A DNA stretch of 64,000 nucleotides, taken from positions 416,001 to 480,000 of the forward strand of contig CAWGPD010000004.1 of the NCBI GenBank assembly GCA_963824385.1, in the 5' to 3' direction. The notes below the pieces were generated by a model, which saw only the letters and a list, made by a program, of their open reading frames with translations, searched no databases and was not told the origin of the DNA. The first letter of the stretch is position 1, and each line of letters starts with the position of its first letter. The DNA comes from an uncultured Nitrososphaerota archaeon. GTDB taxonomy: Archaea; Thermoproteota; Nitrososphaeria; Nitrososphaerales; Nitrosopumilaceae. Below are positions 8,384 to 39,220 of the stretch, one piece after another. The translations under genes were made by a program, and so were the position numbers.

Positions 8384-9712
8384 CTAACCCAAGCCCATCT
8401 TTCGTAGCATTCCCTGCATCTGTCTTCCTTTAGAAGCCTTCATCATGGTCTTTGAATTTTTGTATGCTTTGAGAAGTTCTTTTACCTCATGCTCTGGCCA
8501 CCCAGAACCTCGTGCAATTCTTTTCACTCTAGAAGCATTTATCAAATCAGGATCTGATTTTTCACCCTTTGTCATAGATTGGATAATAAAACGCCACTTT
8601 TCCATTCGTTGTTCTTGTTGCTCCACCTGATTCTTCTTTTACCATACCAGAAAAACCAGGCATGTTTTCTAGGATGTTACGCAATCCCCCTGCCTTTGTT
8701 GCCTCTTCAATTTGAAAGTAGAAATCTTCCATGTTCATTTTTCCATGTGAGATTCTCTTTAGTCTGTCCTCATTGCCCTCAGTCTCAAGTCTTTTTGCCA
8801 TGTCAAGCAATGCTTGAATGTCACCCATTCCAAGCATTCTTCCAACAAATCTTGTTGGCGAGAATTTTTCAAGAATCATCTATTCGTTCACCTGTTCCAA
8901 TGTACATTATTTGTGCACCCGTTGCAGCTGCTGCCGCAAGTGCACCACCGCCCTTTGCACTACTATCTAATTTTGTGACTATAATTCCTCCCACTGGAAC
9001 TGTTTTATGAAATGCTTCAGCTTGATTGTAACATTGTTGTCCAATAGTTCCATCAATTATCAATAATGCAAGGTCTGGGTTTGCAATTTTACCAATTCTT
9101 GTCATTTCATCAAGAAGATTCTTTTTCTTCCTTGTGTCTTCCAGCTGTATCGATTAGAATAATATCAAAATTTTGTCCCTCAAAATGCTTTAGACCATTT
9201 TTTACAAGTTCTGGAGAATCTTTGTTTCCTTCATCACCATACACTTCCACGTTTGCCTTTTCACACATTGTCTTAAGTTGGGTAAGTGCTCCAGGTCTGT
9301 AAGTATCTGCACCGATTACTGCAACTCTGTAACCTTGTCTTGTCAAGAGCTTGGCAAGTTTTGAAGTTACAGTAGTTTTTCCACTTCCCTGAATTCCAAG
9401 CATCAAAACCTTGTTTACTTTACCGGGTTGAAATACGAATTGTTCTTCTGTGCCTAATAATTTAGCAAGTTCTTCATATAGAATTTTCACAATGTGATCT
9501 TTTCTAGAAAGTCCAGGAGGAGGAGTCTCTTTGATAGATCTCTCCTCCAAGTTTTTAGTAATTTGAAAAACTAGTTTTACATTTACATCAGATTGTAGTA
9601 ATGCCCTTTGGATATCTTTTGAAAGTTCCTTGATTAGAGCCTCATCAATTCCCGAAGAATTTACTATTTTCTTTAACGCTGCTCTAAGACCTGTTTTTAG
9701 ACCGTCTAACAT
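8384..9712 (-). CDS. srp54: Signal recognition particle protein SRP54; three +1 frameshifts
   Basis: [46 protein letters not shown] spread over four ORF pieces. Confidence 0.95.
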
Positions 9713-9714
9713 TG

Positions 9715-10396
9715 CTATGCTAAGACAGTCTTCGGTTATTTCAAATCTTCCTCTATAACCATCCCAGATCTTGTTTGCTTTAATTATTCTAATAGGAGAG
9801 TAAAACAATGGACAGTCTACAACAAATGTCTCAGCCTCTCCCCCTTCAAATGTTAAATTAAAACCATGTTTGGCAGACAATAAGACAAGTTGTCCTACAT
9901 CGTCTCTAGTTATTTCGCGCCCCAACCATGTTTCATCAAGTCCTGCTGAAGTTACGCTTGTTATAATAAACTTGAATTTAGAATCCAACAGTTCGTTTAA
10001 ATAATTTTTTTGATCAATATGCCAGAGCGGGGATAGTACTTTAAGATTCAGATTATTTCCAATTGTTTCAAACCGAATTCTTTGGTAATCACTAAACAAT
10101 CCCCCATGAACTATTCCATCTATTCCAAAATCCTTCTTTGCTTTTCCCAATAGGTTTTGTAATTCTTCAAGTTCGATTTTAGGATCAGTTGTATTTACTC
10201 TGCTTAGAATTTTAGGTATTTTCATTGCAGTAGATTGTAACGATGTGACTGAAATGTTTGGATAGTGTAAAAGATGGCTTTCTTCAGATTGTGGAAATAT
10301 TGAAGCAAGACATTCTATGCTATGACCCTCTTGCTTGGCTTTGTATATTGCATATGTACTATCCTTTCCACCTGAAAAAAGAGACGCTAATTTCAA
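9715..10396 (-). CDS. dph6: Diphthine--ammonia ligase (PP-loop); apparent fusion to SRP54 caused by a +1 base
   Basis: SGGKDS PP-loop, PLWH, EGGEAETFV; removing one base at ~9729 gives EAVLA* just before the SRP54 ATG. Confidence 0.88.
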
Positions 10397-17203: not shown

Positions 17204-18413
17204 TTATGGGTATGCCCAGATCTGTTGTCCGTTGTATTTTATTTGAGCAAGACCTGCATAGTCCAAGTTTTGTAGGACACCTGGTAATGGAGCATAACCT
17301 AGTTTTCCTGCATATTGCTGGCCGTCGGATAGCATCCAGTAGAGCATGTAGACTAGATCATTTGCTTTTTGTTGACTCTCACCCTTGATCTGATCAAGAT
17401 TTGGATTCACCAGTAGATATGTGAATGATGAGATAGGATATGAGTTTGGACCCGCTACATTAGCAATCGACACATGACTCCAATCTCCGTCTGAAGTTGG
17501 CAGTGAAGATATTGCACTTGATGCAGCTGCTTCAACATTTGTCATGGTTGGTTGAAGAAATGCAGTTCCGTCAGCGTTTTGAATATATGCATATGGCATA
17601 GGAACTTTGCCCGAGCCTGCAACTAAACCTGCACCGCTGCCGGTATTAGTTGTCAAGAAGTTATGTGTGGCATATCCATATTCAACATATCCTAGTGAGT
17701 CAGGAACGGTCTTGACTACATTGGCAACTCCAGCATTACCTGAGCCTCCAATTCCTCCTTTCCATGGAACAGATGTTCCTTTTCCTACTTCTCCAGCCCA
17801 GTCATCACTGACTTTGCTAAGATAATCGGTGAAGGCATATGTTGTTCCAGAACCATCAGATCTGTGTACAAGAACAATCTTGTTTCGATCATCTTTCAAT
17901 GCTTGTGCAATATTTGGATCTGTTTGAAGACTTACTATAGCTGGATCATTCCAGGTAGTAATTTCACCCAGATAGATTTTTGCTATAACATCTCCTGTTA
18001 ACAAGAGTCCATTATGACGAACTCCTTCAAGATTGTAAGTCATAACTATCGCGCCCATTGACTCTGGAATAGTAAGAGTTCCTGGTGGAGCTTTTGCAAT
18101 TTGAGCTGTCTGCAATGGAGCATCAGTTCCTGCAAAATCTACCTTACTTGTCAGAAACAAGCTTGATACCAGCGCCACTACCTACTGATTGATAGTTCAA
18201 TTTGATTCCTGGGTATATTTGATTAAATTTAACTCTCCATTTATCCATTAATGGATATATGAAAGTTGAACCCCCGGAATTGTATTTGAATTTATCACCA
18301 TCGGCAGGTGGTGTCGGACCGGGATTTGTACTCTGTGCATGCGCACTAAGAACAGTTGTCGGTACTAAAAGAATTAACATTAATGTTAATCCTAGTAAGA
18401 CTTTTTTTGTCAT
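17204..18413 (-). CDS. pstS: Phosphate ABC substrate-binding protein PstS (paralog 1, no C-terminal anchor); one +1 frameshift at ~18160
   Basis: Signal peptide, GSTF.YP, GSGAG, DFAGTD, RSDGSGTT, YPI. Confidence 0.9.
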
Positions 18414-18619
18414 TGAGCTGATCTAAAACAATTGGTATTTACATAAGATCGACATAGATCATGTAACTAACTATATGCTACATTGATTTGTGAAATTCAT
18501 TTGTATACAACATAAGTTATAGAATCACCATAGTAAGAGATTAAAACACATTTATTGTGAATGAAAAAATCCAATAATTTTTAGGTGTTGTTTTAGAATC
18601 GTACGACTTGCAGATCAAA

Positions 18620-19085
18620 TTAATGTATTATCAGTACTGGACAGGTAGCATTTTCCAAAATATGTCTACTAACACTTCCTAGAACTTTTTTTTCAATACC
18701 TTTGTGCCCTTGACTACCCATAACAATTAGATCAACATCATTTGTTTTTACAAAATCAAGTACTGCGTCTCCTGGTTTAGGCTGAGATTATCTCATAGTC
18801 TGCCTCTACTCCCTGTTTCCTGCAATATTCCACAGTTTCTTGAAGTATGTGATCTGCCTTCTTTGCTGCAACATCTACATACTCATCAAATGATTTATTC
18901 CAGTCCACCCCCTGAACCATTCCAAAAAACATGCCTGGCGGTTCAAGCACTGGCGTATGCACCGCCATAATAATACTAAACTCAGAACCAAAATCTTTTG
19001 CAAGCTTGAGGGCTTCATCAAGTGCCCTCTGTGCATATTTCGAACCATCAAATGGAACTAAAATGTGCGAATAAATTTTTGTCAT
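18620..19085 (-). CDS. Universal stress protein; one +1 frameshift at ~18781
   Basis: ILVPFDGS; the repaired frame gives DLIVMGSQG...LGSVSRHILENATCPVLII*. Confidence 0.9.
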
Positions 19086-19396
19086 AACGTATGTTGTATC
19101 CCAATCTATTATAGTAGATGAAAAATATCACGTATGAGAACTATGAGTATTATGAAAATATGAATAGATAATAATTTATCTATAGAAATCATATATGAAG
19201 AAAAATCTATGTAATTCAATCCGAGGCATAATACTCAGATTGTCAATTGAATTGTTAACAATGTATTGAACATTGTAATACCTTAGACACTAGATTTGCG
19301 GATTTATCCAATTGTAGCAACTTAAGAATTGATAATTTTAAAAAAGTACCGAAATAAACCAACTGTGGAATGATAATTTTAAAAAAGAAAAAGAGT

Positions 19397-20613
19397 TTAG
19401 AGTTTTGGACTAAATCTCAGTCCAGTCTTTGCTGAAACTGCAATTATTGATACAATTGCAATTGCAAGAACTAGAGCTGACGATTGGGCCAAATTCTGGT
19501 ACTGCTGCATTACCTGCTGGTGCTATGGTACTGGTTATTGCTTGACCATTGAAGGTCACTGTAGCAAGTCCATCCATGTCTACCTTCTTAATGGAATCTG
19601 GTAATGGCACATACAACAACCCTGAAGCATATTGTTGACCATCATTAACTATCCAGGTGATGAAATTTATCACCTCGGTTGCCTTGTCCTGCGTTTCCCC
19701 CTTAATTGTACTCATGTCTTGATATATCATGACATAAGTCAATGTGGATATTGGGTACGAGTTACTTCCTGGTTGGTTAACAATTGATACTTTACTCCAG
19801 TCTCCGTTTGATGCTGGCAAGTTTGAACCAGCTGCTGCGGCGTCCGCTGCAACACTGTCAAGAGTTGGCTCTACAAATGCAGTTCCATCCGCATTTTGGA
19901 CAAATGCGTATGTCATATTGCTTTGATAAACATATGCAAGTTCTACATAGCCTACAGCGTATGGTGTAGTTTTTACTATGTTAGCAACACCTTCATTTCC
20001 TTTTCCTCCAGTACCAACTGGCCAAGGGACTGACTTTCCTTTACCTATTTTAGTATTCCAATCAGGACTGATTTTGGAAAGATAGTCAGTAAAAGCATAT
20101 GTTGTTCCAGAACCATCAGATCGGTGAGATACTACAATATTTTGACTTGGTAGAGTTGTTCCCGGATTGAGGTTTGCTATTGCAGGATCATTCCATGAGG
20201 TTATGTTGCCCATGAAGATCTGTGCAATTACAGGTCCTGTAAGTTTTAGGCCTTTATCAATTCCAGGAAGGTTATATGCAATTGTTATTCCCCCTATTGA
20301 ATCTGGAATGGTAAGTACTCCTGGTGCATTTTGTTGATCAGTTGTTGATAATGGTGCATCAGATGCTGCAAAATCCACATTCTTTGCTTCTAAGAGACTT
20401 TATTCCTGCTCCACTTCCAAGTGACTGGTAGTTGAGTTGGATGTTCTGGTAGATTTTGTTGTATTGAACTCTCCATGTATCCATTATTGGAAACACGAAT
20501 GTTGAACCTGCTCCTGTTATCGTATAACTTGTCTGTGCAAGCACCGGTAATGACATTGCTGGCACTATTAGAATTAGCATAAATGCTAATCCCAGAATGA
20601 CTTTGTTTGTCAT
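19397..20613 (-). CDS. pstS: PstS (paralog 2) with PEFG-CTERM anchor; two +1 frameshifts
   Basis: GAGSTF, DFAASD, RSDGSGTT; repaired C-terminus VPEFGPIAALVLAIAIVSIIAVSAKTGLRFSPKL*. Confidence 0.92.
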
Positions 20614-20673
20614 GTAAACTGTGCAAAAAATATCATATTTACCTTTGCCTACCATAGTTTTCATGTTAATATG

Positions 20674-20689
20674 AAATCTATATAGATTT
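20674..20689. promoter_or_regulatory. 16-bp perfect palindrome AAATCTATATAGATTT upstream of pstS-2
   Basis: Seen directly; its CTATATAG core recurs in other intergenic regions of the phosphate island. Confidence 0.55.
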
Positions 20690-20722
20690 GACCTAGTGAA
20701 ATAATTTTTATAAATTAAACTA

Positions 20723-21346
20723 CTAATAGGTTCTCGTACCAGTTACAATATAGTTTACCGAGTCACCTACGAATGCCGCATGGTCTGCCATTCTCTCCAT
20801 ATATCTTAGAACCAAGGCATCAGCAAGAGCACATTTTACATTACCAAGCATTATCAACATTGGCAGGTGTTTGTTATAATATTTATCAACAAGATCTTCA
20901 TCAGTTCGCAATTCATGAGCCTTATTAAGATCAAGGGTTGCAAAACATTCTACAGCAAGTTTGACCATCTGTTTAATTTCACCAGATAAAGTATAGATTA
21001 CTTCATTCTTACATTCAGTGAGATCTCCAAAAGTTTCACGAACCATTGTTATGTCATATGCATATCTACTCAATCGTGTAAATCCATATGAAATCTCAAG
21101 TGAGGAACGAATAAGCCTAAAGTCACTTGCAACAGGCTGATACCTAAGAATCATTTCAAATGTCAAATCACCAACTTTGTCATACAAATTCATCATTTGA
21201 CTAGAGAGTTCATGAACCTGTTTTCTAGCATTTTGTCCACCCAAGTAAGAGTCGATTGCAAGATTTGCAGATTGGATAGACAAGTCTGACATTTGTTTCA
21301 TCATTTCAGATAAATTTTGTAAATGTGGATCTATAAGACGTGTCAT
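20723..21346 (-). CDS. phoU: Phosphate uptake regulator PhoU
   Basis: QPVASDFR, ERMADHA; last gene of the pst operon. Confidence 0.88.
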   Translation of the reverse strand: MTRLIDPHLQNLSEMMKQMSDLSIQSANLAIDSYLGGQNARKQVHELSSQMMNLYDKVGDLTFEMILRYQPVASDFRLIRSSLEISYGFTRLSRYAYDITMVRETFGDLTECKNEVIYTLSGEIKQMVKLAVECFATLDLNKAHELRTDEDLVDKYYNKHLPMLIMLGNVKCALADALVLRYMERMADHAAFVGDSVNYIVTGTRTY

Positions 21347-22159
21347 TATCCAAAATGGCCTTGAACATACTTTGCGGTTAACTCATTTCTGGGATTTTCA
21401 AATATTTGTTTTGTTTCTCCAAATTCAACCAAGTCTCCAAGATACATAAAGCCAGTATAGTCAGAAACTCTGGTTGCTTGTTGCATATTGTGTGTCACAA
21501 TAATTATCGTGTATTCTTTTTTTAGTTCATGCATCATCTCTTCAATTTTCTGAGATGCTATAGGATCAAGAGCAGAAGTTGGTTCATCCATTAAAAGAAC
21601 TTCTGGTTGAATAGCAAGTGCTCTAGCAATACACAAACGCTGTTGTTGTCCTCCAGAAAGACCCATTCCTGGTTTTTTCAGATCTCCTTTTACTTCCTCC
21701 CAAAGTGATGCCATCTTAAGACATCCTTCCACCACTTCGTCAAGTATCTTTTTATCTCTGACTCCATTTAGTTTTAGACCACATGCAACATTATCGTAAA
21801 TGGACATTGTAGGGAAAGGATTTGGTTTTTGAAATACCATTCCTATTTTTCTTCGATTTATAATAGGATCTACTTTGGTAGAGTAAAGGTCCTCACCATC
21901 AAGCATAACTTTTCCTGTCAGTGTAGCATTCTTTGTAAGCTCATGCATTCTGTTTAAACATCTAAGAAATGTTGTCTTTCCACATCCAGAAGGTCCTATA
22001 AGAGTCTGTAACTGCCCTGTCTCGAAACTTCATTGATACATTCTTTACAGTTGCTATACCGTCATAGCTTGCAGTAATATCTTCTGCAATGAGTTTGTAT
22101 TTTACATCTTCAGTTGAAATCCCCTTTACAGGAGTTCTTGTAGTTGCTGTCTCCATCAT
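21346..22159 (-). CDS. pstB: Phosphate ABC ATPase PstB; one +1 frameshift at ~22005
   Basis: Repaired [41 protein letters not shown]. Confidence 0.95.
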
Positions 22160-23076
22160 GATACAGCTCTCTTTCTCTTGAACCTTAAAAATGTTTTTTC
22201 TTTATTTCTCAAAAATATATACCTCACACCAATATTTATTGAAAGAACCATGATTATCAAAATAAATGCTGCCCCCCATCCTTGAGTCACTGCACTGTCA
22301 TATGGGAGTGATGAGAGTCTCCATATCCTAAGCGGAAGTGCGTCAATTGGTCCATTAAAGTCTGATATGAAGTCGCTGCTACCAAGAATTGTGAATATAA
22401 GAGGTGCTGTTTCACCAGATATTCTTGCAACTGCTAACAAAATTCCAGTTACAAGACCATTTTTTGCACCACTGAGTACAATAGTAAAAACTACTCTATA
22501 TCTCCTAATTCCTAAAGCATATCCAGCTTCCCTATATGTGACAGGTACTAATTTGAGTGATTCTTCGGTTGTTCTCATTATTATTGGCAACATAACAATA
22601 GAAAGTGCAAATGAACCAGCCCAGACAGAAAAGTTCCCTACTGTTAAAACAATTAAAACAAATGCAAACACACCAATTACAATTGTTGGAAATTCTGCAA
22701 GTACGTCATTGAAAAATCTAACTGTCCTACCATATCTATTGTTACCATATTCTGAGAGAAATATTCCACCCATCACACCAACCGGAACTCCAATTAGACT
22801 AGACATTCCAATAAGCACCAAAGTTCCTTGAATAGCAGGACCAATTCCTCCTGGGTCATCACTTCCTACAGCTCCAGGTACTTCAGTGAGAAATTCCCAT
22901 GTTAACGCAGGTGCTCCATTACTAAAGACATTGACTAAGATAGCCAGCAGTGGGACAATGGCAACTATCACACATGAAAAGACGATACACTTAACAATTT
23001 TGTCCAGTACAAGTCTCCTACCTACGTTATAACGAAAATGTTTTCTAAATTCAGCTCTTTGTTCAGGAGTAATCAT
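22156..23076 (-). CDS. pstA: Phosphate ABC permease PstA
   Basis: PTIVIG, ARISGETAPL. Confidence 0.93.
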   Translation of the reverse strand: MITPEQRAEFRKHFRYNVGRRLVLDKIVKCIVFSCVIVAIVPLLAILVNVFSNGAPALTWEFLTEVPGAVGSDDPGGIGPAIQGTLVLIGMSSLIGVPVGVMGGIFLSEYGNNRYGRTVRFFNDVLAEFPTIVIGVFAFVLIVLTVGNFSVWAGSFALSIVMLPIIMRTTEESLKLVPVTYREAGYALGIRRYRVVFTIVLSGAKNGLVTGILLAVARISGETAPLIFTILGSSDFISDFNGPIDALPLRIWRLSSLPYDSAVTQGWGAAFILIIMVLSINIGVRYIFLRNKEKTFLRFKRKRAVS

Positions 23077-24041
23077 GCCAGTACTGCTCCCTCGTGAGAC
23101 TTTACTACTCTAGCAACAAGAAGATGTGCAATTACATTGATGGTAAAGGCCATAAGGAAAAGAATTAGTCCAATACCAATAAGAGCTGCTAAATGAAGAC
23201 CACCTTGAGAGGCCTCAGCAAATTCATTTGCCATTATAGTAGCCAATGTTTGGCTAGGTTGGAATAATGAGGTTGGAATTGCAGCTGCTCCAGTTGCGTT
23301 TCCTATCAACATTGTAACTGCCATTGTCTCACCCACAGCTCTTCCAAGACCCAATATTGTAGCACCAATTAATCCAGATTTAGAATATGGCAATACTGCA
23401 AGTCTGAAAGCTTCCCATTTTGTAGCTCCAAGCATATATGCCGCTTCACGCTGACTATTTGGAACTGCCAACATAATCTCTTTTGAAATAGAAGCAATGG
23501 TAGGAATTATCATAATGGCTAAAATAATACTTGCTGTAAGAATATCTAGTCCAAAAGGAGTTCCTGCAAATATTATGCTCTTGTCTCCAAAGAAGTTATG
23601 AAGTGGAGTCTCTATCCAGTCTTGGATATAAAATCTGAATACAAGCAAGCCCCACAATCCATACACTACACTTGGAATAGCTGCAAGAAGCTCTATGATC
23701 ATAGAAAGAGGGGTCCTCAATAACCTAGGGGAAAGTTCAGAAAGAAACATGCCAATTCCAAAGCTTAGAGGTACTGCTATTAGCATGGCAATTCCAGCGT
23801 TAACTATAGTACCCATTATGTAAGGAAATGCACCATAAGATTCTCTGTCTTCAACAGAGTTCCAGTCAGAGCCTGTAAGAAATGATATTCCCTCTTGCTG
23901 CCAAACTTGTGCTGAACCGGTTACAAGATTAATTACAATCATTGCAATAACTACAAGAACATACGTGGCTGCCGCTAAGGCAACAATTTTAAAAATTTTA
24001 TCTACATGAGGTGACCCTTTATTCATTTTAATGGTCATCAT
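23073..24041 (-). CDS. pstC: Phosphate ABC permease PstC
   Basis: IPSVVYGLWG, GRAVGETMAV. Confidence 0.95.
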   Translation of the reverse strand: MMTIKMNKGSPHVDKIFKIVALAAATYVLVVIAMIVINLVTGSAQVWQQEGISFLTGSDWNSVEDRESYGAFPYIMGTIVNAGIAMLIAVPLSFGIGMFLSELSPRLLRTPLSMIIELLAAIPSVVYGLWGLLVFRFYIQDWIETPLHNFFGDKSIIFAGTPFGLDILTASIILAIMIIPTIASISKEIMLAVPNSQREAAYMLGATKWEAFRLAVLPYSKSGLIGATILGLGRAVGETMAVTMLIGNATGAAAIPTSLFQPSQTLATIMANEFAEASQGGLHLAALIGIGLILFLMAFTINVIAHLLVARVVKSHEGAVLA

Positions 24042-24180: not shown

Positions 24181-25233
24181 TTGTCCGAAGTACTAAACGA
24201 TAGAGAGGTTCGAAAACTACAACTTGTTGGGGGATCCACGTATGTTCTATCTCTTCCCAAAAAATGGGTCGATGAGCTGAAACTAAAGACAGGAGATTCT
24301 GTTTCAATAATTAAAAATGTCAACAAATCGCTTTCAATATTACCAACGACAAACACTTCAAGTCCAAAGCTTTCAAAATCAAAGACAGTCATTAGTCAAA
24401 AAGATAGTGTAGAATCAGTTCAAAGAAAGATCATTGCAATGTATCTATCAGGTTATCAGATTATAGAAATTCATGCAAAAGGAGGAAGAATTCAATTAGA
24501 ACACAAACAGGCAATAAGAGATCTTGTAAGAAAAAACATGATCGGAACTGAAATTGTAGAGTCTACACCCGAATCACTTACAATTCAGGTTTTAACCAGC
24601 CTTCCAGAACTTTCAATTAGTGATGCCCTCAAGAGGATGTTTTTACTCACGTCAACAATGCATAGACAGGCAATTGATGCCCTAAAAGAAATGGATGTGG
24701 AGTTAGGAGAAGAGATTACTCATCTAGATGATGAAGTAGATAGATTCAGTCTATACATACTTAGAAATTTAACACTTGCAGTTGAACATGAAAAGATCCT
24801 TCGAGATGTAGGACTCAAAAAACCATCAGATTGTATTAGTTATAGAATAGTGGTAAAATCAATTGAAAGAATTGCAGATCATGCAGTATCAATTGCAAGT
24901 AGGATAAAATTTTTAAAATCAACTTTGGAACCTGCGTTGATACAAAAGATAACTCGCCTAAGTGAAGAATCACTCAAAGTTTTCGAGGACTCTATTTTGG
25001 CATTAAATAAGAGAGACTATGCACTTGCAGATAGTGTTGCAACCAATGCGTGCAGGATAACTGAAAAAGAAAAAGAGTTTACAGATAGCCTTGAGGAATC
25101 AAAGAAATACTCTAGTGTGATCAAGTTTGTCTTAGAAGATATTCGTAGAACTGCAGAATATTCTAGTGACATTGCAGAAGCTGTAATTAATGAAACCGTT
25201 CAGGATGTAATTTCTGAGAACATATCTCCATAA
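24181..25233 (+). CDS. AbrB-PhoU phosphate uptake regulator
   Basis: N-terminal RKLQLVGGSTYVLSLPKKW (AbrB-like), LDDEVDR and IERIADHA PhoU repeats. Confidence 0.9.
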   Translation: MSEVLNDREVRKLQLVGGSTYVLSLPKKWVDELKLKTGDSVSIIKNVNKSLSILPTTNTSSPKLSKSKTVISQKDSVESVQRKIIAMYLSGYQIIEIHAKGGRIQLEHKQAIRDLVRKNMIGTEIVESTPESLTIQVLTSLPELSISDALKRMFLLTSTMHRQAIDALKEMDVELGEEITHLDDEVDRFSLYILRNLTLAVEHEKILRDVGLKKPSDCISYRIVVKSIERIADHAVSIASRIKFLKSTLEPALIQKITRLSEESLKVFEDSILALNKRDYALADSVATNACRITEKEKEFTDSLEESKKYSSVIKFVLEDIRRTAEYSSDIAEAVINETVQDVISENISP

Positions 25234-25281: not shown

Positions 25282-25317
25282 AGCAGGTATTTATCTATGA
25301 ATCTTATGAGACCCAAT

Positions 25318-25950
25318 ATGGCAAAATGGTTGTCTTGGATAAAATCAAATGACAAAGAAATTATTGCAATATTAAATGATTCTGCAGGCAAAGCAGAAGA
25401 GTCTGCAAAACTGCTAGTTGATTTATTTGCAAACTTTGATAAATTAAATGAGAATCATGCTGAAATTGAAAAACTAGAAAAAGAAGCAGACAAACTTACA
25501 CATTCCATTTTTGAAGAATTAAACAAGACATTCATTACCCCTCTAGACAGAGAAGATATTTCCAGGATTGCATCAAAGACAGATGATATCATAGATTACA
25601 TTGATGGAATAGTGGGAAGAATAATTGGTTTTAAAATAAAATCTCCTCCACCATACATGCTTGAAATGGCAAAAGAAATTCACAATTCCACAAAGGAAAT
25701 TAATTTAATGATTACAAGATTAAACAAAGTAAAGGCAGACAAATCACTAATTGAACACTGCCGGGTAGTAAATGAACAAGAGCACAACGTTGACGCTATT
25801 TTTCGTAAAGCCATAGGAGAATTATTTGAGACAACGGATGTTATTAATATTATAAAAATGAAAGATACCTATGAAGCACTTGAGAACGCTTCAGATAGAT
25901 GCCTTGATGTAACTGATTCCATAGAGGACATTGTTCTCAAATACACATAG
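25318..25950 (+). CDS. DUF47 phosphate transport regulator (PhoU-like Pit accessory protein)
   Basis: FITPLDREDI, EKEAD, LENASD; upstream of pit. Confidence 0.88.
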   Translation: MAKWLSWIKSNDKEIIAILNDSAGKAEESAKLLVDLFANFDKLNENHAEIEKLEKEADKLTHSIFEELNKTFITPLDREDISRIASKTDDIIDYIDGIVGRIIGFKIKSPPPYMLEMAKEIHNSTKEINLMITRLNKVKADKSLIEHCRVVNEQEHNVDAIFRKAIGELFETTDVINIIKMKDTYEALENASDRCLDVTDSIEDIVLKYT

Positions 25951-25959
25951 GTATTTTCT

Positions 25960-26951
25960 ATGATTGAATTAGCCATAGGTGCGATTGTAGCAGCACTAGT
26001 TTTTGATTTCCTTAACGGATTCCATGATGCAGCAAATTCCGTTGCAACTGTAATAGGCACTAGAATTCTAAGACCACTTCACGCTGTATCAATAGCAGCA
26101 GCTGCCAATTTTATTGGTCCATTTCTCTTCGGAGTTGCAGTTGCAACAACAGTGGGAAAAGGAATCATCAATCCAGATTTTGTTACACTCAATATAATCA
26201 TCGGGGCTCTTGTTGGCGGCATAGTATGGGATATTTTCACATGGCTGCTTGGTTTGCCTACATCAAGTAGTCATGCATTGGTAGGTGGAATTATAGGCGC
26301 TGGAATAGCAGGAGCTGGAACCAAGGTAATAGTGATTGACGGGATACAAAAAGTTGTCATGGGAATTCTGGTCTCCCCCATTGCAGGTTTTGCAGCAGCA
26401 TTTGTAACTGGATTAGCGATAATGATGATATTTGCAAAAGCAAAACCTCATGCGGTAAACTCTGCGTTTGGAAAGCTGCAATTAGTTTCTGCTACATATT
26501 TTTCATTAACCCACGGAGCAAATGATGGACAAAAAACAATGGGAGTCATTGCTTTGATTTTACTAACTCAGGGAGTAATTACAAAATTTAGTGTTCCATA
26601 CTATGTGATCATAATGGCTGCATTAGTGTATAAGCCTTGGAACATTTTTTGGAGGATGGCGCATAGTAAAGACAATGGCAGTAAAGATTACTCAGCTTAG
26701 ACCATACCAAGGTTTTGCTGCAGAAACAAGTGCAGCTGACAATACTTGCAACTCTTGCATGGTTCGGAATTCCAGCAAGTACAACTCATGCCATATCTGG
26801 AAGCATAATGGGAGTAGGTGCAGTAAGAAGAATGTCAGCAGTAAGATGGGGCATAGGAAAAAGGATCGTATGGGCATGGATTATAACAATACCTGCTAGT
26901 GCGGCAGTATCATTTGTAATTATGCTACTCATAAAAGTAATATCACATTAA
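25960..26951 (+). CDS. pit: Inorganic phosphate transporter, PiT family; two +1 frameshifts
   Basis: NGFHDAANS, PTSSSHAL, HGANDGQK; repaired GGWRIVKTM and PASTTH. Confidence 0.93.
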
Positions 26952-27068
26952 TTATAAAATTTCAATCATACCATAATCAGACATTTAATTAAAGTCAGTA
27001 TACAATTATCAAATTCTTTTCGTATCATAAAATAAACAGATCATAACTTAAAAGAACAGGGTATTATT

Positions 27069-27882
27069 ATGAATATAATGAAAGAAACTTTAGATTTTGA
27101 CAAGAAATTATTCTTCAAAAAATTTGAAAAAATTCAAGAGAAATTTTATCAGCAATTACAAGATTACATAAAAAAGCCAAGTGATGAAAATATCCATGAT
27201 ATTAGAGTTGCAATTAGACGTTTAGAGACAGCTTACAAAATTTTGCCAAAGAATTTGAGGAAAAAAGAAAAAAATACAAATTATGTAAAACAAGTTAAAA
27301 CACTTTTTAAATTAAATGCAAAGATAAGGGATTATGATATAATATGTGCAAAAATGGAATCCAAGTATAAAGACCAAACATATGATTTGGTAGTTATTCT
27401 AAAAAATGCCAGAATTGAAAAACTTCATAGTGCTAATGAAATTGCATTAAAAATCCTACATGCATCTACTCCCAAGATCTCTGTCCAACATGATAAAAGA
27501 ATCAAAATTGAATAAGAGATATTTCAAAATATTGGGCAAAATAGAATTGGACATTCAAAAAAATACAATTATTGCACTTGGAGATGAGAAAAAAATAGAA
27601 GAGCTGCATATGCTAAGAAAAGATTTTAAAAAATTACGATACTCATTTGAATTAGCATCAAGTAAAGGAAAAACAGTCCAAATCCTCAAAAATTTAAAAG
27701 AAATTCAAGATATGCTTGGCGATGTTCATGATAGTGACATAATTATCGATAATCTTAGAAGTATTGAACAAAATTCAAAATATTTAGACATCATAGAATC
27801 TGAAGTTTTAGAAAGGAGAAAAAAATACAATGCGTTTGTAGATGCCTTTAAGAAAATAAAACCAAAGGCAGGATATTTCTAA
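27069..27882 (+). CDS. CHAD domain (polyphosphate-binding) protein; one +1 frameshift at ~27480
   Basis: IHDIRVAIRRL, RDYD, LHMLRKDFKKLRY, QDMLGDVHD. Confidence 0.88.
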
Positions 27883-29403
27883 CTATAATTCAAGGATGGA
27901 GCTTTGTGGACTTCCCAGATAGGGACGAGTTGAGAGAATAACTTTAACATCAAATACAATCTCAAACTTTTTCAAGGCATCTTTGAGTAAAAATTTCTGA
28001 GTAGAACGTGATTGGGTGATGGTGATTTCTATTATTCTTGTCCCATGTTGTTTTAATTCAATCTTTGACTTGGTTCTTTCAAGAATCTTTCTTAGAGTAA
28101 TCAATGCGGAGATTTTCTTCATAGATATCTTATCTTGTTGAGATAGAATTGTTCTGTATCGGGCAAATAACCAGTCGGATGTCTTAGTATGTCTTGCATG
28201 TACTAGAGAAAGTCCTAAGACTAGTTGATCATTATGATCAAGCGGAATATCTTCATCCATGATTGAATAAAACACACTCTGTGGACTACTAAATGATGAT
28301 TTCTCTGACATTATTTTTTCAGCATAATCAAGTATCTTTCGTCTCTCTTTTAGAAATGAGTTTGATAGATAAAGAGTGTTAAGAAAAGATTCTTTTTCCA
28401 GAACTTGTGATACGTGGTTCATCAAGACCGATTGTTTTTCTAATTTGTTCAGCAGTAAGGTATCCATCATGATACGCCTTTGGATCTTCCAAGAATATTG
28501 AAAGTGCTCCCTCTCTGAGTCCATGGTTACTTACATACAAATCTGAAAAATCGTATTTTTCCATCAATGTCTCAATTACATAAGAGCCTGCAATAATTGT
28601 CTCAGATCTACTAGAACCCAAGACTGAGATCTTTGAAATATCATCCGAACTCATTTTTGACAACCCACTAATTGTAGAATCAAGAGATTTACGACTAATT
28701 TTGTAATTATGAATTTTATCCAATGGATATAATGAAACTCTTTGCTCATATCTAGCCAAGGCACGCAATGCACCACCAACCCCAACAAGCTTTACATCTC
28801 GACTCATGCCCAAATCTTTTTTGCTAGGAAGAAGATTCCAGATGTGTCGTTTTAGGTCCTTGAGATTTTTTTCAGTGAATTTACCTCTTCTGCCATCAAA
28901 TTGATGTGTCAATCGTAGAGCTCCGAGAGGTAATGAGATTACTTTTTTTATCTTGAATCGTTCTGCGTAAACAATCTCCAAGCTACCACCTCCAATGTCA
29001 AAAAATAATGAATCGGGAATATGAAGTGATTTTATTGCACCCACATATGAGTACAGAGCTTCCTCTCGTTCAGATAGAACTTTGAAATTAAATCCAGTTT
29101 CTTTAGAAACAACATTTAGAAAGTTTTCCTTGTTACGTGCCTCTCTTACTGCACTAGTAGCAATAGGTAGGACTGATTTTATAGGATTTAATTGAATTAT
29201 ATCTCTAAAAACTTGTAGTGTATCTATTGCTCTTGACATGGGTTTTTTTCCCAATTTGCCTTTTTCGTCAAGTCCTTCTCCTAGTCTTACTTTGATTCCT
29301 TCTTGCTGATAAACATCAAACGAATCATCATCTTTGACATTATAGATGACCAATTTAGCAGAGTTAAAACCAAGATCGATTACAGATATTTTCAGTTAAA
29401 CAT
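27883..29403 (-). CDS. ppx: Ppx/GppA exopolyphosphatase; frameshift near 28400 and probably near the start
   Basis: VIDLGFNS, ATSAVR, EEA, DIGGGSLE, GLREG. Confidence 0.9.
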
Positions 29404-29487
29404 TACCTACTTTTTTACTAACATGAACTATTAATCTACTTCTGATTTACATTTTTTCACTAAATGAAAAACATAGGAAACGTAAAC

Positions 29488-29986
29488 CTACGATATTTTC
29501 TTCAAAAGTTTTGGAGTAAGCAACCATCTTAGATCTCCTTTGAGTTTAGGCAGTATAGCCAGTACTCTTATCCTAGCTAGTCCAGCTCTTCTTTAGATCT
29601 ATTCTACAATCAGATTGAGATATAGATTCACTAATCATTTGGCTCAGATATGGTTCATGACCCACTACAAGCACTACAGATTCTCGTTTTAACTTTGACA
29701 AGGCAGAGTAAAATTCTAGTCTGCTTCCTTCAGGTTTCAAGGCATCTAATTCTTCGATTTTACCTTTGTATTTGAGAGATTTTGCTACAAGTTCAGCTGT
29801 ATTTTTGGCTCGTAAGAGAGGACTAGTAAGGATATAATCCAATTTCACTTCCAAGAATTTTAGACCATTTGATAGATCTAGAATCTCTTGACGTCCATCA
29901 GGGGTAAGTGTTCTCTTAAAATCCCCCGATGATGGAGATCGTTTTCCCGCGTCACCGTGTCGTAGCACTAACAGATCCATAGACAA
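29488..29986 (-). CDS. sixA: Phosphohistidine phosphatase SixA; one +1 frameshift at ~29589
   Basis: LRHGDA, R.LT..G, SPLLRA, VGHEP. Confidence 0.9.
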
Positions 29987-30110
29987 GTCATCAGTTTTTC
30001 AAATATTTATGAGTTAAAGAAGGTTTGGCGTTACAACCATAATGTAGATTTGAAATGAAATTGCAAACCGTCTACACCATGAATTATTATTTTTTTTAGT
30101 GTTACATTTA

Positions 30111-30118
30111 CTATATAG
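30111..30118. promoter_or_regulatory. CTATATAG palindrome in the divergent sixA/kinase promoter
   Basis: Seen directly. Confidence 0.45.
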
Positions 30119-30225
30119 ATCATAGTCATTAATTGATGAAATTTTACAAACCGCATGATAGATGGAAAAATGGCAGTAAAACCTAAAATTGCCGTCATGT
30201 CACAAAGTAACTCGAGATAAGAAAA

Positions 30226-30897
30226 ATGGAAAAAAGAGGAAAACTAATCATAGTTGAAGGCATAGACGGTTCAGGAAAATCAACTCAACTTCATCTTTTA
30301 GAAAAGTGGCTTGCATTCAAGGGTGTCAATGTTTTCAAGTCAGAATGGAATTCTTCTGAAATGGTAAAAGAGATCACATCCAAGGGGAAAAAGAAAGGAT
30401 TACTCACTCCAACTACGTTTAGTTTATTGCATGCTACAGACTTTGCAGATAGATATGAAAGAAATATCTCACCATTGTTAAGAGCAGGCTATTTTGTATT
30501 AGCAGATAGATTTGTCTACACTGCATTTGCAAGAGACATTGTAAGAGGTTGTAATCCTGCATGGGTAAAGAAAGTGTATGATTTTGCAGTCAAACCAGAT
30601 GTTGCGTTTTACTTTAAAGTTCCAGTAGACATTGCAGTTGATAGAATTCTCATTGGTAGACCCAAGCTAAAGTATTACGAAGCTGGAATGGATATGAACT
30701 TGAGTAATGACCCATATGAGAGTTATAGAATTTTTCAAGGAAGAATAATTGAGCAATATGACTCACTTGCAGAAAGTGAGGGGTTTACCATAATAGATGG
30801 AACACTAAACATTGAAGAACAACAAAATATGGTAAGAAAAAATATCATGCCACTTTTAGAAGACATGAAACCAACCAGGACGAGGGCAAGGAGATAA
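30226..30897 (+). CDS. Thymidylate-kinase-like P-loop protein; putative catalytic subunit of a family-3 polyphosphate kinase
   Basis: EGIDGSGKST, ADRF; neighbours ppx, CHAD and sixA. Confidence 0.8.
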   Translation: MEKRGKLIIVEGIDGSGKSTQLHLLEKWLAFKGVNVFKSEWNSSEMVKEITSKGKKKGLLTPTTFSLLHATDFADRYERNISPLLRAGYFVLADRFVYTAFARDIVRGCNPAWVKKVYDFAVKPDVAFYFKVPVDIAVDRILIGRPKLKYYEAGMDMNLSNDPYESYRIFQGRIIEQYDSLAESEGFTIIDGTLNIEEQQNMVRKNIMPLLEDMKPTRTRARR

Positions 30898-30900
30898 GAC

Positions 30901-31632
30901 ATGACGCGAGACAAATACAAGGATCTTGGAACCAGAACTGTGGAATTTTATGGTCATGGAATAAAGAATTTGCAAGACACTGAAATTAAGGGAAAATTGA
31001 TTGTTATTGAAGGTCCAGACGCATCAGGCCGTAGCACGCAGATCCAATCAATCACTACAAGATTGGAAGCAGATGGTCATGCAGTACTCAATACTGGCCT
31101 TAAAAGATTAGAACTTGTTGGCAAAGGAATATTGGAAGCAAAGGAAAATTACACATTGGGTAAGAAAACTCTAGCGTTATACTATGCCGCAGATTTTGCA
31201 GACCAATTTGAATACAAGATTATTCCCGCATTGCAAGCAGGATATATTGTCCTTGCAGACAGATACATCTACACACTCATAGCAAGAAATTTGGCAAGAG
31301 GTTTGGACAAAACTTGGTGTCACAATTTATACGGATTTGCAATCAAGCCAGACATTGTATTTTATTTAGATGTTGAACCATCAGTCTTGATACACAGAGT
31401 TTTCCAAAAGAATTCTACATTAGACTATTACGAATCAGGGGCAGACATGGGACTATCAAATGATATGTACGAATCATTTTTAATTTATCAAAAGAGAATA
31501 TCACAAGAGTTTCATTTGATGCAAAAAAGATATGGTCTTGTACCTATCAATGGCAACAGAACTATGCTCGAAATTCATAATGACTTACAGAAGAGAATAG
31601 ATAATTTTCTTCGTCGGGTTGGTCACAAATAA
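30901..31632 (+). CDS. Second thymidylate-kinase-like protein with altered P-loop; putative regulatory subunit
   Basis: EGPDASGRST (K replaced by R), ADRY; tandem paralog 3 nt downstream. Confidence 0.8.
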   Translation: MTRDKYKDLGTRTVEFYGHGIKNLQDTEIKGKLIVIEGPDASGRSTQIQSITTRLEADGHAVLNTGLKRLELVGKGILEAKENYTLGKKTLALYYAADFADQFEYKIIPALQAGYIVLADRYIYTLIARNLARGLDKTWCHNLYGFAIKPDIVFYLDVEPSVLIHRVFQKNSTLDYYESGADMGLSNDMYESFLIYQKRISQEFHLMQKRYGLVPINGNRTMLEIHNDLQKRIDNFLRRVGHK

Positions 31633-35714: not shown

Positions 35715-36956
35715 CTATTCTCTTCTTAATGCAACCATTGGAGAAAGCTTTGATGCCTTCCATGCAGGATACATTCCTGCCAAGACACTTAGTCCCAAAG
35801 AAAGTAACCAGACTTTGATCAAATCCGTAGGAACGTAGATTGGCGGTATGTGAACAGGTGCACCTCCTCCAGTAGGAGTAGTGGTTGTAACTATACCCAA
35901 TATGATACCTGCAACCATGCCAATTGCCATCCCAGATGAAGCCCCAATTATGCCAATCAGCGCAGCCTCTACTAGGAACAGCGCAAGTATCTCAGCATTC
36001 TGAGCCCCTATTGCCTTCATGGTACCTATCTCACGAATTCTTTCTGTAACAGAATTGTATAATGTAGTAACAATACCAACTGCACCTACAACAAGTGCAA
36101 TAATTCCAACCATTAGAATAAAAGCTGCGTTTCCGCTTGCAGCTTGCTGCCTTACTGCCATAAGTGCCTTGGGCGTTGTAGCGCCAAGAGTTTTTCCAAA
36201 CATATCAGTTATCTCTTGCTGTACAGTATCAACATCATCAGGACTAGTTGCAGCCATTATCAGTGAATCATACCTGTTTTGCTTGTGCAGTAGTTGATTG
36301 CCTGCATCAAGATTGATAATCATAGACCTGTCGATTCCAGTATTACCAGACGGTTTTAGTATTCCTGTAACTATAAAATTTTTTATTACTGTGTGCGATC
36401 CACTTGAATCAGAATATGTTGCTGTTGCCTTGATTGTTTCTCCAAGTGTGACAAAAGCAGTATCCGCGCCAGGCGGATTTACTATAGTATCTCCCACTAG
36501 TGCCGACCCCCGGTCACCGGGATTTACTACAGAACCATCAATATATTGAAGATTGGGTAGTTCTACAGTCAATTTGGATGGATCAATTGCGGTAACAGAA
36601 GCATGCTGAACGCTTCCCATTGAATTCATCTGTATAGAACCAGTGTACTCTGGTACGACATCAGATACATTTGGAAGACTCTTGAGTTTTTGTACAATGA
36701 CATCATTGATTGTTATAGAATTACTTGTGGAAGTTGCATATGAGCTAAGGGAACGTTGTCCACTACCTACAAAAAGAACATTAGCTGCTAATGTGTTAAA
36801 TTGTTGTTCCAAGAATGCAGCCTGACCTGCACTTAGACCATTTAATACGACAACAAGACTGCTGCCAAGTACGACCATTAAAATTGTAAGTAGTGTCCTG
36901 ACCTTTCTATCAACTAGTGCCTCAAATGACAATAAAAAAAGATCTTTAGGATTCAT
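35715..36956 (-). CDS. ABC transporter permease, MacB/FtsX family
   Basis: RTLLT.L, ERIREIGTMKAIGA, YPAWKASKLSP..ALR. Confidence 0.9.
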   Translation of the reverse strand: MNPKDLFLLSFEALVDRKVRTLLTILMVVLGSSLVVVLNGLSAGQAAFLEQQFNTLAANVLFVGSGQRSLSSYATSTSNSITINDVIVQKLKSLPNVSDVVPEYTGSIQMNSMGSVQHASVTAIDPSKLTVELPNLQYIDGSVVNPGDRGSALVGDTIVNPPGADTAFVTLGETIKATATYSDSSGSHTVIKNFIVTGILKPSGNTGIDRSMIINLDAGNQLLHKQNRYDSLIMAATSPDDVDTVQQEITDMFGKTLGATTPKALMAVRQQAASGNAAFILMVGIIALVVGAVGIVTTLYNSVTERIREIGTMKAIGAQNAEILALFLVEAALIGIIGASSGMAIGMVAGIILGIVTTTTPTGGGAPVHIPPIYVPTDLIKVWLLSLGLSVLAGMYPAWKASKLSPMVALRRE

Positions 36957-39220
36957 TTTCTTTCTTTTTGGTATCGTCAAATATGGATACTATGTCCGAA
37001 TCCCCCTGTGTTACCATCTTTAGTTTTTTCTTTGCCAGTTTTTTCTTTCTCGCTAGAAATACAATCACTGCAGCTACTGCAACAATTATTCCAATAGTCA
37101 CTGGTTCTGGTAGAGGTATCTGATTAAGTATTGGTATATTACCAAGTATAGAACCAGACTTGGCAGTTGTAATGGCCTGACGAGCCTTTGCAATAGATAT
37201 GGTTCCATTTACTATAACAGTATGAAAGACCTTTAGATCATCAGCATATACTACCTTGAATGCCACATTATAGGTTCCAGACGGTATTGAAGTAAGTCCT
37301 CTAATCGGAACGCTGATTGGAATTGGTGAATCTGGTGAGAGATCACCTATGAATTGTTGCGATGAACTTGCTGCACCGCCGCCTCCAGAGCGCCCTTGCC
37401 CACCTGCACCACCGCCACTCCTCCTCCAGAGTATCCACCTGCACCGCCGCCACTCCTCCTCCAGAGTATCCACCTGCACCGCCGCCAGCTCCTCCTCCAG
37501 AGTATCCACCTGCACCGCCGCCAGCTCCTCCTCCAGAGTATCCACCTGCACCGCCGCCAGCTCCTCCTCCAGAGTATCCACCTGCACCGCCGCCAGAAGG
37601 TGTAGATGAATGGGTTTGATTATTTGTCGAATTTGCAATTCTTGCAGTTCGCATTTCTTGCGTAAGTTGTGAAGGTGCAAGCTGAACTGTTGTAAATAAT
37701 GCAGTTGTACTACCTTGATTGAGTAAATTGCCCACTATGGTAGAAGTTCCACCTGCAGTAGTTTCAGTTAGACCATATACTTGGAGCTTGATATCACCTA
37801 CAACAAATGCACCAAGTGTAAGGGAATTTGTTTGAGCTTGACCATTTGAATCATAACTAGCAGTCAGTGTAAACGAGGTTGGAGTAGAAATCAGTGAAGT
37901 TGCTGCATATACCTTAGTTGATAGAGTTTGGTTAGATCCTGGGCCTAAGGTTGGTATTGTCCAAGTAGAAGTTCCAACAATAGATACTGAAGTTGATTGT
38001 GGTACAAGATTTATAATTACATTAGTCATCGTATTGTTGCTATGATTTGATACCGCAAAATCAAGATCAGCTAAATTTCCTGCAACAATCACAGGAGTTG
38101 ATTGATTTCCAAGATATGACAAAGTAATAGATTGTGGCGGACTAGGAGTTACAACAAGACCTGTAGAAACATCAGTGGTTAAAATCTTGCCCCAGGCATT
38201 TTCATAACTAATATTTAGCTCCACCTGCTGGGTAGAACCAGCAGCACCAGTGCCTGGGTAAACAGTTGTAGATATCCGAGCATCCGAGTTTGCATGAATC
38301 GTTCCAAGGTTGAAGGAATTAGGCCCTAAATTAACAATATTAGTAGTACCTGAAGACAATGTAATTGCTCCACTACTAGAACTTCCAGAAGCACCTTTAG
38401 ATTGTCCAAGATTTACAATTGTGGCAACTACACCTGTTGCATCAGCAGAGCCCTTGTTTTCAACATCTATCGTTATAGTACTCTGAGTTTGAGGAGGAAC
38501 CTCTGGAGTATCAGTTGATGCATCCATTATTACCTTACCAGGAAGAACAAATGGAACGTCAAGTAATGCCGAAGTACATTGCGTTCCAACTACTCCTACT
38601 TCAACATAATTTGCAACAAGTGTGGTAGCAAAAGTACCTACTCTAGCAGTTGATAGCACATTTATGTTAAAGTACATAGTAAATGTACCTCCAGGCGATA
38701 TGGTACCATAATAGTTTCCAATTGCAGCACTAGATGCAGAAGAAACTCGAGATGCTTGAGTGTGTTGTTGAAGTAATTGAGGATTTGCGCTCTCTCCAGT
38801 AGCTGCAAATCCCGATGGAAGATTAAGAAAAGCAGTAACAGATGTTATCGGAAAGTTTGAATTTCTGTTTGTCATGACCACTGCAAAAACTGAAGGTCCT
38901 TCTCCCGGGCCTATCTCTTTTTTGACAGGATTGCTAGTAATGTCGGTATTAGTAGACGTTCCTTGATCTACCCAATACGAGTCAACAACCACTGGACCGG
39001 CATAAGTGGCATCAAGTATTGTAGTAAGAGGTGCAAAACAATCCTGTGTTTGTTGTGTCGATATACCTGATGTTGTAGTGGTAGTGGTTGTAGTCTGTCC
39101 AAATGCATTAAACGATGAAATCATGGTAGGTGCAAAAAGCATCAGGATTAAAATCGGGATTACAACTTTAACTGCAAGTTTTCTTGAGAAAAACTTGCTA
39201 AAAGAGTTAATGGTAGACAT
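36946..39220 (-). CDS. Large secreted, membrane-anchored S-layer-like (COG1361-type) protein with Gly-rich repeat; two -1 frameshifts inside the repeat
   Basis: Signal peptide, Thr/Ser-rich beta-sandwich repeats (N.G...A, LGTI), C-terminal TM plus basic tail; lies between ABC ATPase and permease. Confidence 0.8.
37400..37596. repeat. 36-bp GC-rich tandem repeat, ~5.5 copies, encoding GGGAGGYSGGGA
   Basis: Unit CCACCTGCACCGCCGCCAGCTCCTCCTCCAGAGTAT; two copies lack the G of AGCT. Confidence 0.95.

Follow-up and report, generated by a model that had tools for sequence, protein, structure and literature searches.

A tandem gene pair resembling thymidylate kinases in a Nitrosotalea-like archaeon is probably a PPK3-type polyphosphate kinase whose partner subunit keeps the DRX arginine

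Are two adjacent genes that resemble thymidylate kinases, located beside genes of polyphosphate (polyP) metabolism, really thymidylate kinases, or do they encode the two subunits of a polyP kinase? This question is raised by a 64,000-nucleotide stretch of DNA (the window) from an uncultured Nitrososphaerota archaeon, which is part of one contig (C4) of a 1.68 Mb genome that is 86% complete. The closest named loci are those of Nitrosotalea, and the first gene of the pair (gene A) is 97% identical to that of Ca. N. bavarica; the source organism is Nitrosotalea-like. The open reading frames (ORFs) of A and of the second gene, B, were confirmed as the original prediction had described them, 3 nt apart and with the P-loops GIDGSGKST and GPDASGRST, respectively, and their products are 39% identical to each other. 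That prediction had proposed a candidate heteromeric polyP kinase. Our comparisons indicate, with a probability of about 0.9, that A is the catalytic (c) subunit and B the partner (r) subunit of a PPK3-type polyP kinase, the two-subunit enzyme defined by Hofmann et al. 2026 (PMC12995831; this article and the preprint 10.1101/2024.08.28.610084 are cited here for their available parts). The kinase identity proposed for the pair was thereby supported, but its novelty did not hold, PPK3 in Nitrososphaerota being already reported in PMC12995831; the system is described down to the genus, and the pair is another PPK3 and no new kind of enzyme.

We compared A and B with Sulfolobales reference pairs taken from two loci (L139 and L138), whose proteins were identified by exact look-up as those of S. 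acidocaldarius and S. tokodaii. The ends of L139:2118-2750 matched, by eye, the saci_2020 primers of PMC12995831, the gene preceding it was assigned as Saci_2019 by gene order, and the c protein of L138 matched PDB 2plr/5h70 over the residues displayed. The identity of A to Saci_2019 and STK_15430, the PPK3 subunits with catalytic function, was 49-50%, and that to the thymidylate kinase (Tmk) of its own genome was 22%. Its top PDB match was 2plr/5h70 (E 3e-65), while the next Tmk was matched at E 3e-15. The two trees that we built placed A and B with the Sulfolobales PPK3 subunits, as had been expected of them, and separated the c and r subunits from Tmk with support of 100/99 and 100/100; B grouped with the r subunits Saci_2020 and STK_15420 (97/96 and 99/99). 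The first tree held 8 of the 16 Tmk rows, the Tmk of the source genome being absent from it, and the second held all 16; the outgroup consisted of archaeal Tmks only.

The residues of A are those of a catalytic subunit. The lysine of the P-loop (K18) and the arginine of the DRX motif (R95) are intact, conserved basic residues are found at K48, K55-K57, H69, R76, R79, R103, R107, K149 and R204, and A has every basic residue that is common to 95% or more of the 105 c rows compared; this list of basic-cleft residues was derived from conservation and not from the figures of PMC12995831. AlphaFold2 models of A and B reached a mean pLDDT of 89.1 and 89.6, respectively, and the best fold match of the B model was S. 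tokodaii st1543 (STK_15430), with TM 0.77/0.89.

It is very unlikely that A and B serve as spare or specialised kinases of (deoxy)nucleotide monophosphates, the function that database annotation would give them. Both match Pfam Thymidylate_kin (E 2e-21 for A and 8e-22 for B) and exceed the TIGR00041 cut-off of 83.25 bits, although barely (86.9 and 84.0 bits, respectively). Their homologues are named dTMP kinase in the databases, which is the mis-annotation as tmk that had been foreseen, the model of B resembles Tmk structures, and STK_15430 was originally described as a thymidylate kinase according to preprint 10.1101/2024.08.28.610084. The same preprint states, however, that the STK_15430 assay tracked ADP only, and no dTDP was obtained from Saci_2019 or Saci_2020 in the experiments of PMC12995831. 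A canonical tmk, the search for which had been suggested with the original prediction, is present on contig C2 (C2:106573-107109; PF02223 E 2e-38) and groups with the Tmks of ammonia-oxidising archaea (AOA), whereas A and B fall outside the Tmk clade. Furthermore, a column that is Tyr or Phe in 16/16 Tmk rows is Arg in both A and B, and the pair is tightly linked to ppx and CHAD.

Several observations weigh against the assignment of the pair to PPK3. The identity of B to the Sulfolobales r subunits (27-32%) was no higher than its identity to Saci_2019 (34%), and the c-subunit clade, supported at 97/85 in the first tree, was supported at 62/20 in the second. B lacks the DRX defect by which PMC12995831 explains the inactivity of the r subunits. 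The genome also encodes a PPK2, and a literature search found no report of a PPK3 assayed outside S. acidocaldarius. At one related locus (L053:3566-5064), the gene next to a c-type gene is a CHAD gene in convergent orientation, and the 5.9 kb contig carries no r gene; according to PMC12995831, c and r always occur together but for one case. On the side of the assignment, an A2B2 assembly was predicted with a score of 0.67, as compared with 0.36 for the best control, but this score may mirror likeness, because similar Tmk homodimers have been solved, and a model is not proof of binding. The score mark was attained by 116/157 solved and 2/215 mismatched pairs, a calibration that is only rough for this job. 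The A2B2 runs had at least 80% of their contacts in common, with a partner pLDDT of at least 78, and the surest contacts were between equivalent helices (A 61-87 with B 85-104).

The retention of the DRX arginine in B raises the question of what the partner subunit does. In PMC12995831 the DRX arginine of rPPK3s is described as replaced, and this is given as the reason for their inactivity; the legend of its Fig. S14 names only Saci_2020 and STK_15420. In B the lysine of Walker A is replaced by arginine (R44), while the DRX motif is kept as D120-R121-Y122 and R129 is also kept; seven c-specific basic residues (K48, K57, H69, R76, R79, K149 and R204 of A) are missing. Comparison of the Walker-A, DRX and c-R103 columns among r subunits showed that they read R/R/R in 83/83 non-Sulfolobaceae archaeal rows, in 3/3 bacterial rows and in 61/71 library representatives spanning all three columns, whereas 10/10 Sulfolobaceae rows had K or R, G, and W or Y, respectively. 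At the DRX column, glycine was found in 10/10 Sulfolobaceae rows and arginine in 83/83 other archaeal and 85/87 representative r rows. R121 belongs to the 17/204 columns whose conservation among the representatives reaches 95% or more (median 50%), and the Sulfolobaceae r branch is long in both trees (3.5 and 2.1 changes per column). Of the 150 representatives, 12 exceeded 330 amino acids (aa) and were excluded, and another 14 were put aside as ambiguous; the set was retrieved with B as the query and sorted with profiles from related loci, which favours B-like rows.

Because it retains the DRX arginine, B is not an rPPK3 of the Sulfolobaceae type. The loss of this arginine was not taken as defining PPK3, because the family as delimited in PMC12995831 includes Nitrosotalea. 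Since seven c-specific basic residues are lost, B is most likely non-catalytic by a route other than that of the Sulfolobaceae subunits, and since the DRX arginine is kept and the Walker-A lysine is changed to arginine instead, the widespread form of the partner may still bind nucleotide. These motif states suggest that the published reason for r inactivity is valid for Sulfolobaceae only. No mention of DRX arginine retention in r subunits was found in the available text of PMC12995831 or by a literature search on PPK3, although Figs. S14, S16 and S19 of PMC12995831, which lie outside its available parts, may show it.

A tentative refinement, compatible with the PPK3 assignment and rated as possible but well short of probable, is that B is a nucleotide- or phosphate-binding pseudokinase rather than an inert scaffold and tunes A to the energy charge. 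The Arg-type P-loop and the DRX arginine of B would then bind ATP or ADP without turnover, and the Sulfolobaceae r subunits would be derived and further decayed. Walker-A Lys-to-Arg variants often bind ATP and do not turn it over; a literature search returned no direct source for this behaviour. The R/R/R pattern outside Sulfolobaceae, the high conservation of R121 and the long Sulfolobaceae r branch all favour such a role, but the conserved arginines could be structural or make passive contacts with polyP, the rows are related and non-independent, and sampling with B as the query favours B-like sequences. The conservation of ATP/ADP-binding residues in both r and c subunits had, moreover, already been stated in PMC12995831.

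It is less likely by far, and in our opinion improbable, that B is itself catalytic and carries out a phosphotransfer of its own, for instance to another acceptor or in the opposite direction, which would give the enzyme two active sites. B keeps R121 of the DRX motif, D40, G43, S45 and T46 of the P-loop, and R129, R133 and R166, and its dN/dS of about 0.04-0.05 against three relatives indicates strong purifying selection. The replacement of the Walker-A lysine in 83/83 rows and the loss of the seven c-specific basic residues argue the other way, as does the inactivity of the Sulfolobus r subunit reported in PMC12995831.

Fused forms of these domains were also seen among the library proteins. 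In P0122 (460 aa), an intact c-type domain is naturally fused to an r-type domain, and P0161 and P0229 have two domains, of which the first half is degenerate and the second carries an Arg-type P-loop. In P0127, P0146, P0189 and P0262 (620-700 aa) and in P0227 (1610 aa), c-type PPK3 domains are fused to more sequence, with weaker second matches.

A and B, taken as the c and r subunits of a PPK3, can be compared with the characterised enzyme of S. acidocaldarius (SaPPK3, Saci_2019 and Saci_2020; preprint 10.1101/2024.08.28.610084). Both have tandem c-then-r genes of the dTMP kinase fold, a separate tmk and a predicted A2B2 assembly, and the five-gene set is that of saci_2017-2021, including sixA, ppx and CHAD. 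These genes form a single operon in Sulfolobus, whereas here sixA and ppx are divergent from the pair and CHAD converges on ppx; a Pst/PiT/PhoU cluster is attached and a PPK2 is encoded in the same genome. B also differs from Saci_2020 in having Arg at the DRX position, R129 and a Walker-A Arg, where Saci_2020 has Gly, Trp and Lys, respectively. The protein STK_15430 of Sulfurisphaera tokodaii (PDB 2plr, 5h70, 4nzy and 4rzx, titled dTMP kinase) is the best solved match of A by sequence and of the B model by fold, and its partner STK_15420 has a Walker-A Arg like that of B, but DGY where B has DRY. PPK3 is reported chiefly from Nitrososphaeraceae and Sulfolobaceae, where PPX, SixA, CHAD and Pst are its neighbours (PMC12995831). 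N. okcheonensis was scored there as PPK1 0, PPK2 1 and PPK3 1 (Data S1), the same profile as that of the source genome; we found no difference between the two, the PPK3 of N. okcheonensis being a prediction only. The same data predict PPK3 in Nitrosocosmicus spp. and in one Nitrosopumilus sp.

For activity, direction and stoichiometry we infer from the Sulfolobus enzyme. A would hold ADP or ATP in its P-loop and polyP in a basic cleft that replaces the dTMP pocket, and B, its paralogue, would form an oligomer with A, probably A2B2, and activate it. Together they would transfer the terminal phosphate reversibly between polyP and ADP, mainly forming ATP when the energy charge is low and polyP when ATP/ADP is high, and dTMP would be phosphorylated by the product of the separate tmk on contig C2. 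Ppx, as a hydrolase of polyP, would free inorganic phosphate (Pi) from it, the CHAD protein, as a polyP-binding protein, would bind the polymer, and the Pst, PiT and PhoU genes would supply Pi. The complete uptake, storage and release module proposed earlier is represented by its gene set, but storage is the weaker direction, because the characterised Sulfolobus enzyme forms ATP about 50-fold faster and makes polyP only at high ATP/ADP (PMC12995831). The putative control by phospho-histidine, at which sixA had been taken to hint, is suggested by the gene neighbourhood and was left open in PMC12995831. A literature search returned no specific report on polyP in Nitrosotalea.

The other polyP kinases of the genome were also considered. 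With the PPK2 of the genome as the query, no PPK2-like gene was found in the window (best E 1.1), and the PPK1 C-domain (PF13090) had no match in the genome, which at 86% completeness is not proof of absence; the original prediction had stated that PPK1 and PPK2 are missing from the window. The PPK2 gene (C4:312113-312814) lies some 133 kb away from A and is the only PF03976 match in the genome, A and B having none. Its neighbours, named by eye, are ORFs that resemble an SPFH/stomatin-like protein and a universal stress protein, between which it (287 aa; L112, C4:310613-314314) is located, and an aquaporin-like gene close by. Among 42 genomes of the genus, each at least 85% complete, PPK2 was found in 22; PPK3 and PPK2 occur together in 21, PPK3 only in 12, PPK2 only in 1 and neither in 8. 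The idea that PPK3 stands in for a missing PPK was rejected: because the genome has PPK2, as do 22/42 genus genomes, the pair is not a substitute for a missing kinase. PPK2 resembles PPK3 in being a P-loop kinase acting on polyP, and two-domain class II PPK2s likewise combine one active and one inactive domain, but PMC12995831 reports no specific relationship between PPK3 and PPK2 beyond the P-loop core.

The setting of the pair (Table 1) agrees with the neighbourhood described originally, a divergent sixA-ppx, an adjoining CHAD gene and a Pst/PiT island, most of which was recovered by profile matches; the genes of the Pst cluster were named by eye from ORF translations and not by profile scan. 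The DUF47 and PiT genes and the PhoU/AbrB regulator lie upstream, with the Pst cluster farther out. The match of ppx to TIGR03706 (246 bits) is under the cut-off of 307 and falls on its broken N-terminal part. The insertion of DUF47-PiT between CHAD and the PhoU regulator is variable: it was found in 12/80 loci and is missing even in the close relatives L004 and L006.

Table 1. Features of the window around the kinase pair, with positions in the window.
Feature	Position	Strand	Evidence
cPPK3, probable catalytic subunit (gene A), 223 aa	30226..30897	+	identity, PDB match, trees
rPPK3-clade partner subunit, probable (gene B), 243 aa	30901..31632	+	trees, column census, dN/dS
TATA-like element, sixA/cPPK3 intergenic region	30110..30129	+	top-conserved block among 27 aligned intergenic regions
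sixA-like phosphohistidine phosphatase, RHG motif	29488..29980	-	TIGR00249 76.4 bits, cut-off 74.5
ppx exopolyphosphatase, ~503 aa	27883..29395	-	PF02541 E 4e-52
CHAD-domain polyphosphate-binding protein, ~270 aa	27069..27882	+	PF05235 on both halves
DUF47 + PiT (PHO4) phosphate transporter, accessory	25297..26951	+	PF01865, PF01384
AbrB/MazE-PhoU phosphate-uptake regulator	24181..25233	+	PF04014 + PF01895; in 34/80 related loci
Pst cluster: pstC, pstA, pstB, phoU, two pstS; several frameshift-split	17204..24041	-	ORF translations

Gene content and co-occurrence, like the orthology and motif states of the pair, were established in this analysis. The neighbourhood counts refer to the best 80 of 423 related loci, many of which are truncated by contig ends; B is present in 77 of these 80, ppx in 67, sixA in 60 and CHAD in 54, and the clustering of genes around the pair exceeds chance. 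Two of the three loci lacking B end just past A, and the third is L053, which carries CHAD instead. In the 42 genus genomes the A-B pair is found in 33 and ppx in 32, and their presence or absence agrees in 41/42, the single mismatch being an 85%-complete genome; physical linkage by itself favours such agreement. These counts describe a dispensable block and are not a statistical test, because kin are non-independent and the genes are linked. In a phylum sample of 401 genomes, 38 matched A at E 1e-30 (the source genome, 16/69 of its own family, 3/3 of family f15 and 18/20 of family f33, which includes the Sulfolobus and Sulfurisphaera proteins). The pair is patchy and dispensable in the genus and family. 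It was also seen in records titled Cenarchaeum, Nitrosopumilaceae and Thermoplasmata (L049, L068, L069, L073 and L075); that of L073, labelled Thermoplasmata, nests among Nitrososphaerota sequences, by transfer or mis-binning.

The region between sixA and A contains the TATA-like element, which has one match in the whole window and is the probable promoter of the kinase pair. Because no second copy of this conserved element lies close to the pst genes, a shared Pho-box is not claimed. The ppx gene seemingly begins with a CTG (29393-29395, minus strand) right after an in-frame stop, and initiation is probably at this codon. Among 43 divergently arranged loci, the start codon of ppx was CTG in 35, TTG in 5, ATG in 2 and GTG in 1, while that of sixA was ATG in 42/42. 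The CTG start may hold Ppx translation low; a literature search gave no specific report of CTG starts in Thaumarchaeota.

CHAD, ppx, sixA and PiT are each broken in the assembly by one-base indels relative to L005, while A and B are unbroken; neither these split genes nor the genomic PPK2 were mentioned in the original prediction. CHAD has an extra base at 27483 that is lacking in the contigs of 3/4 public runs, and sixA has one near 29588 that is lacking in those of 4/4 runs, where two contig pieces across the site show no other difference from the window; one of these runs is possibly the source sample. Two of the three one-base indels of ppx (near 28340-28398) are visible in the contigs of 3/4 runs, the third and the two extra bases of PiT (26627 and 26737) being based on the L005 alignment, and run contigs revealed indels in the pst cluster at 20397 and 22005. 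In the relatives examined, sixA (163-165 aa) and CHAD (267-270 aa) are single ORFs in 4/4. More split or falsely fused ORFs are found at 8562-10396, 17204-22150 and 36946-39220, including SRP54-like, both pstS, pstB and an ABC-associated surface protein with GC-rich repeats, and they fit an indel-rich assembly. One-base assembly errors probably account for the broken frames of CHAD, ppx and sixA. Frameshifts in four adjacent genes could be read as real decay of the module in this strain, but all are one-base indels, the extra bases are absent from the contigs of near-identical strains, unrelated genes of the window are split too, the relatives are intact and A and B are unbroken; such decay is highly unlikely, and real pseudogenisation was rejected on the run contigs and the intact relatives.

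Should the tentative reading of B as a pseudokinase be right, a wider and somewhat more doubtful picture would follow. The common and probably ancestral PPK3 partner of AOA and bacteria would be a pseudokinase that reads ATP/ADP and directs A, with the Sulfolobus r subunit being atypical and decayed; the CTG start would limit Ppx, and polyP in Nitrosotalea, which has both PPK3 and PPK2, would be a switched energy buffer. The motifs of the partner subunit suggest a small, directly testable correction to the published reason for r inactivity. For a second test of the family, a mesophilic PPK3 of a cultivable genus would be the natural choice, and it is possibly an ATP-regeneration enzyme for moderate temperatures. 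For the acid-soil nitrifiers themselves, in which the pair is present in 33/42 genus genomes, dTMP kinase labels hide polyP metabolism.

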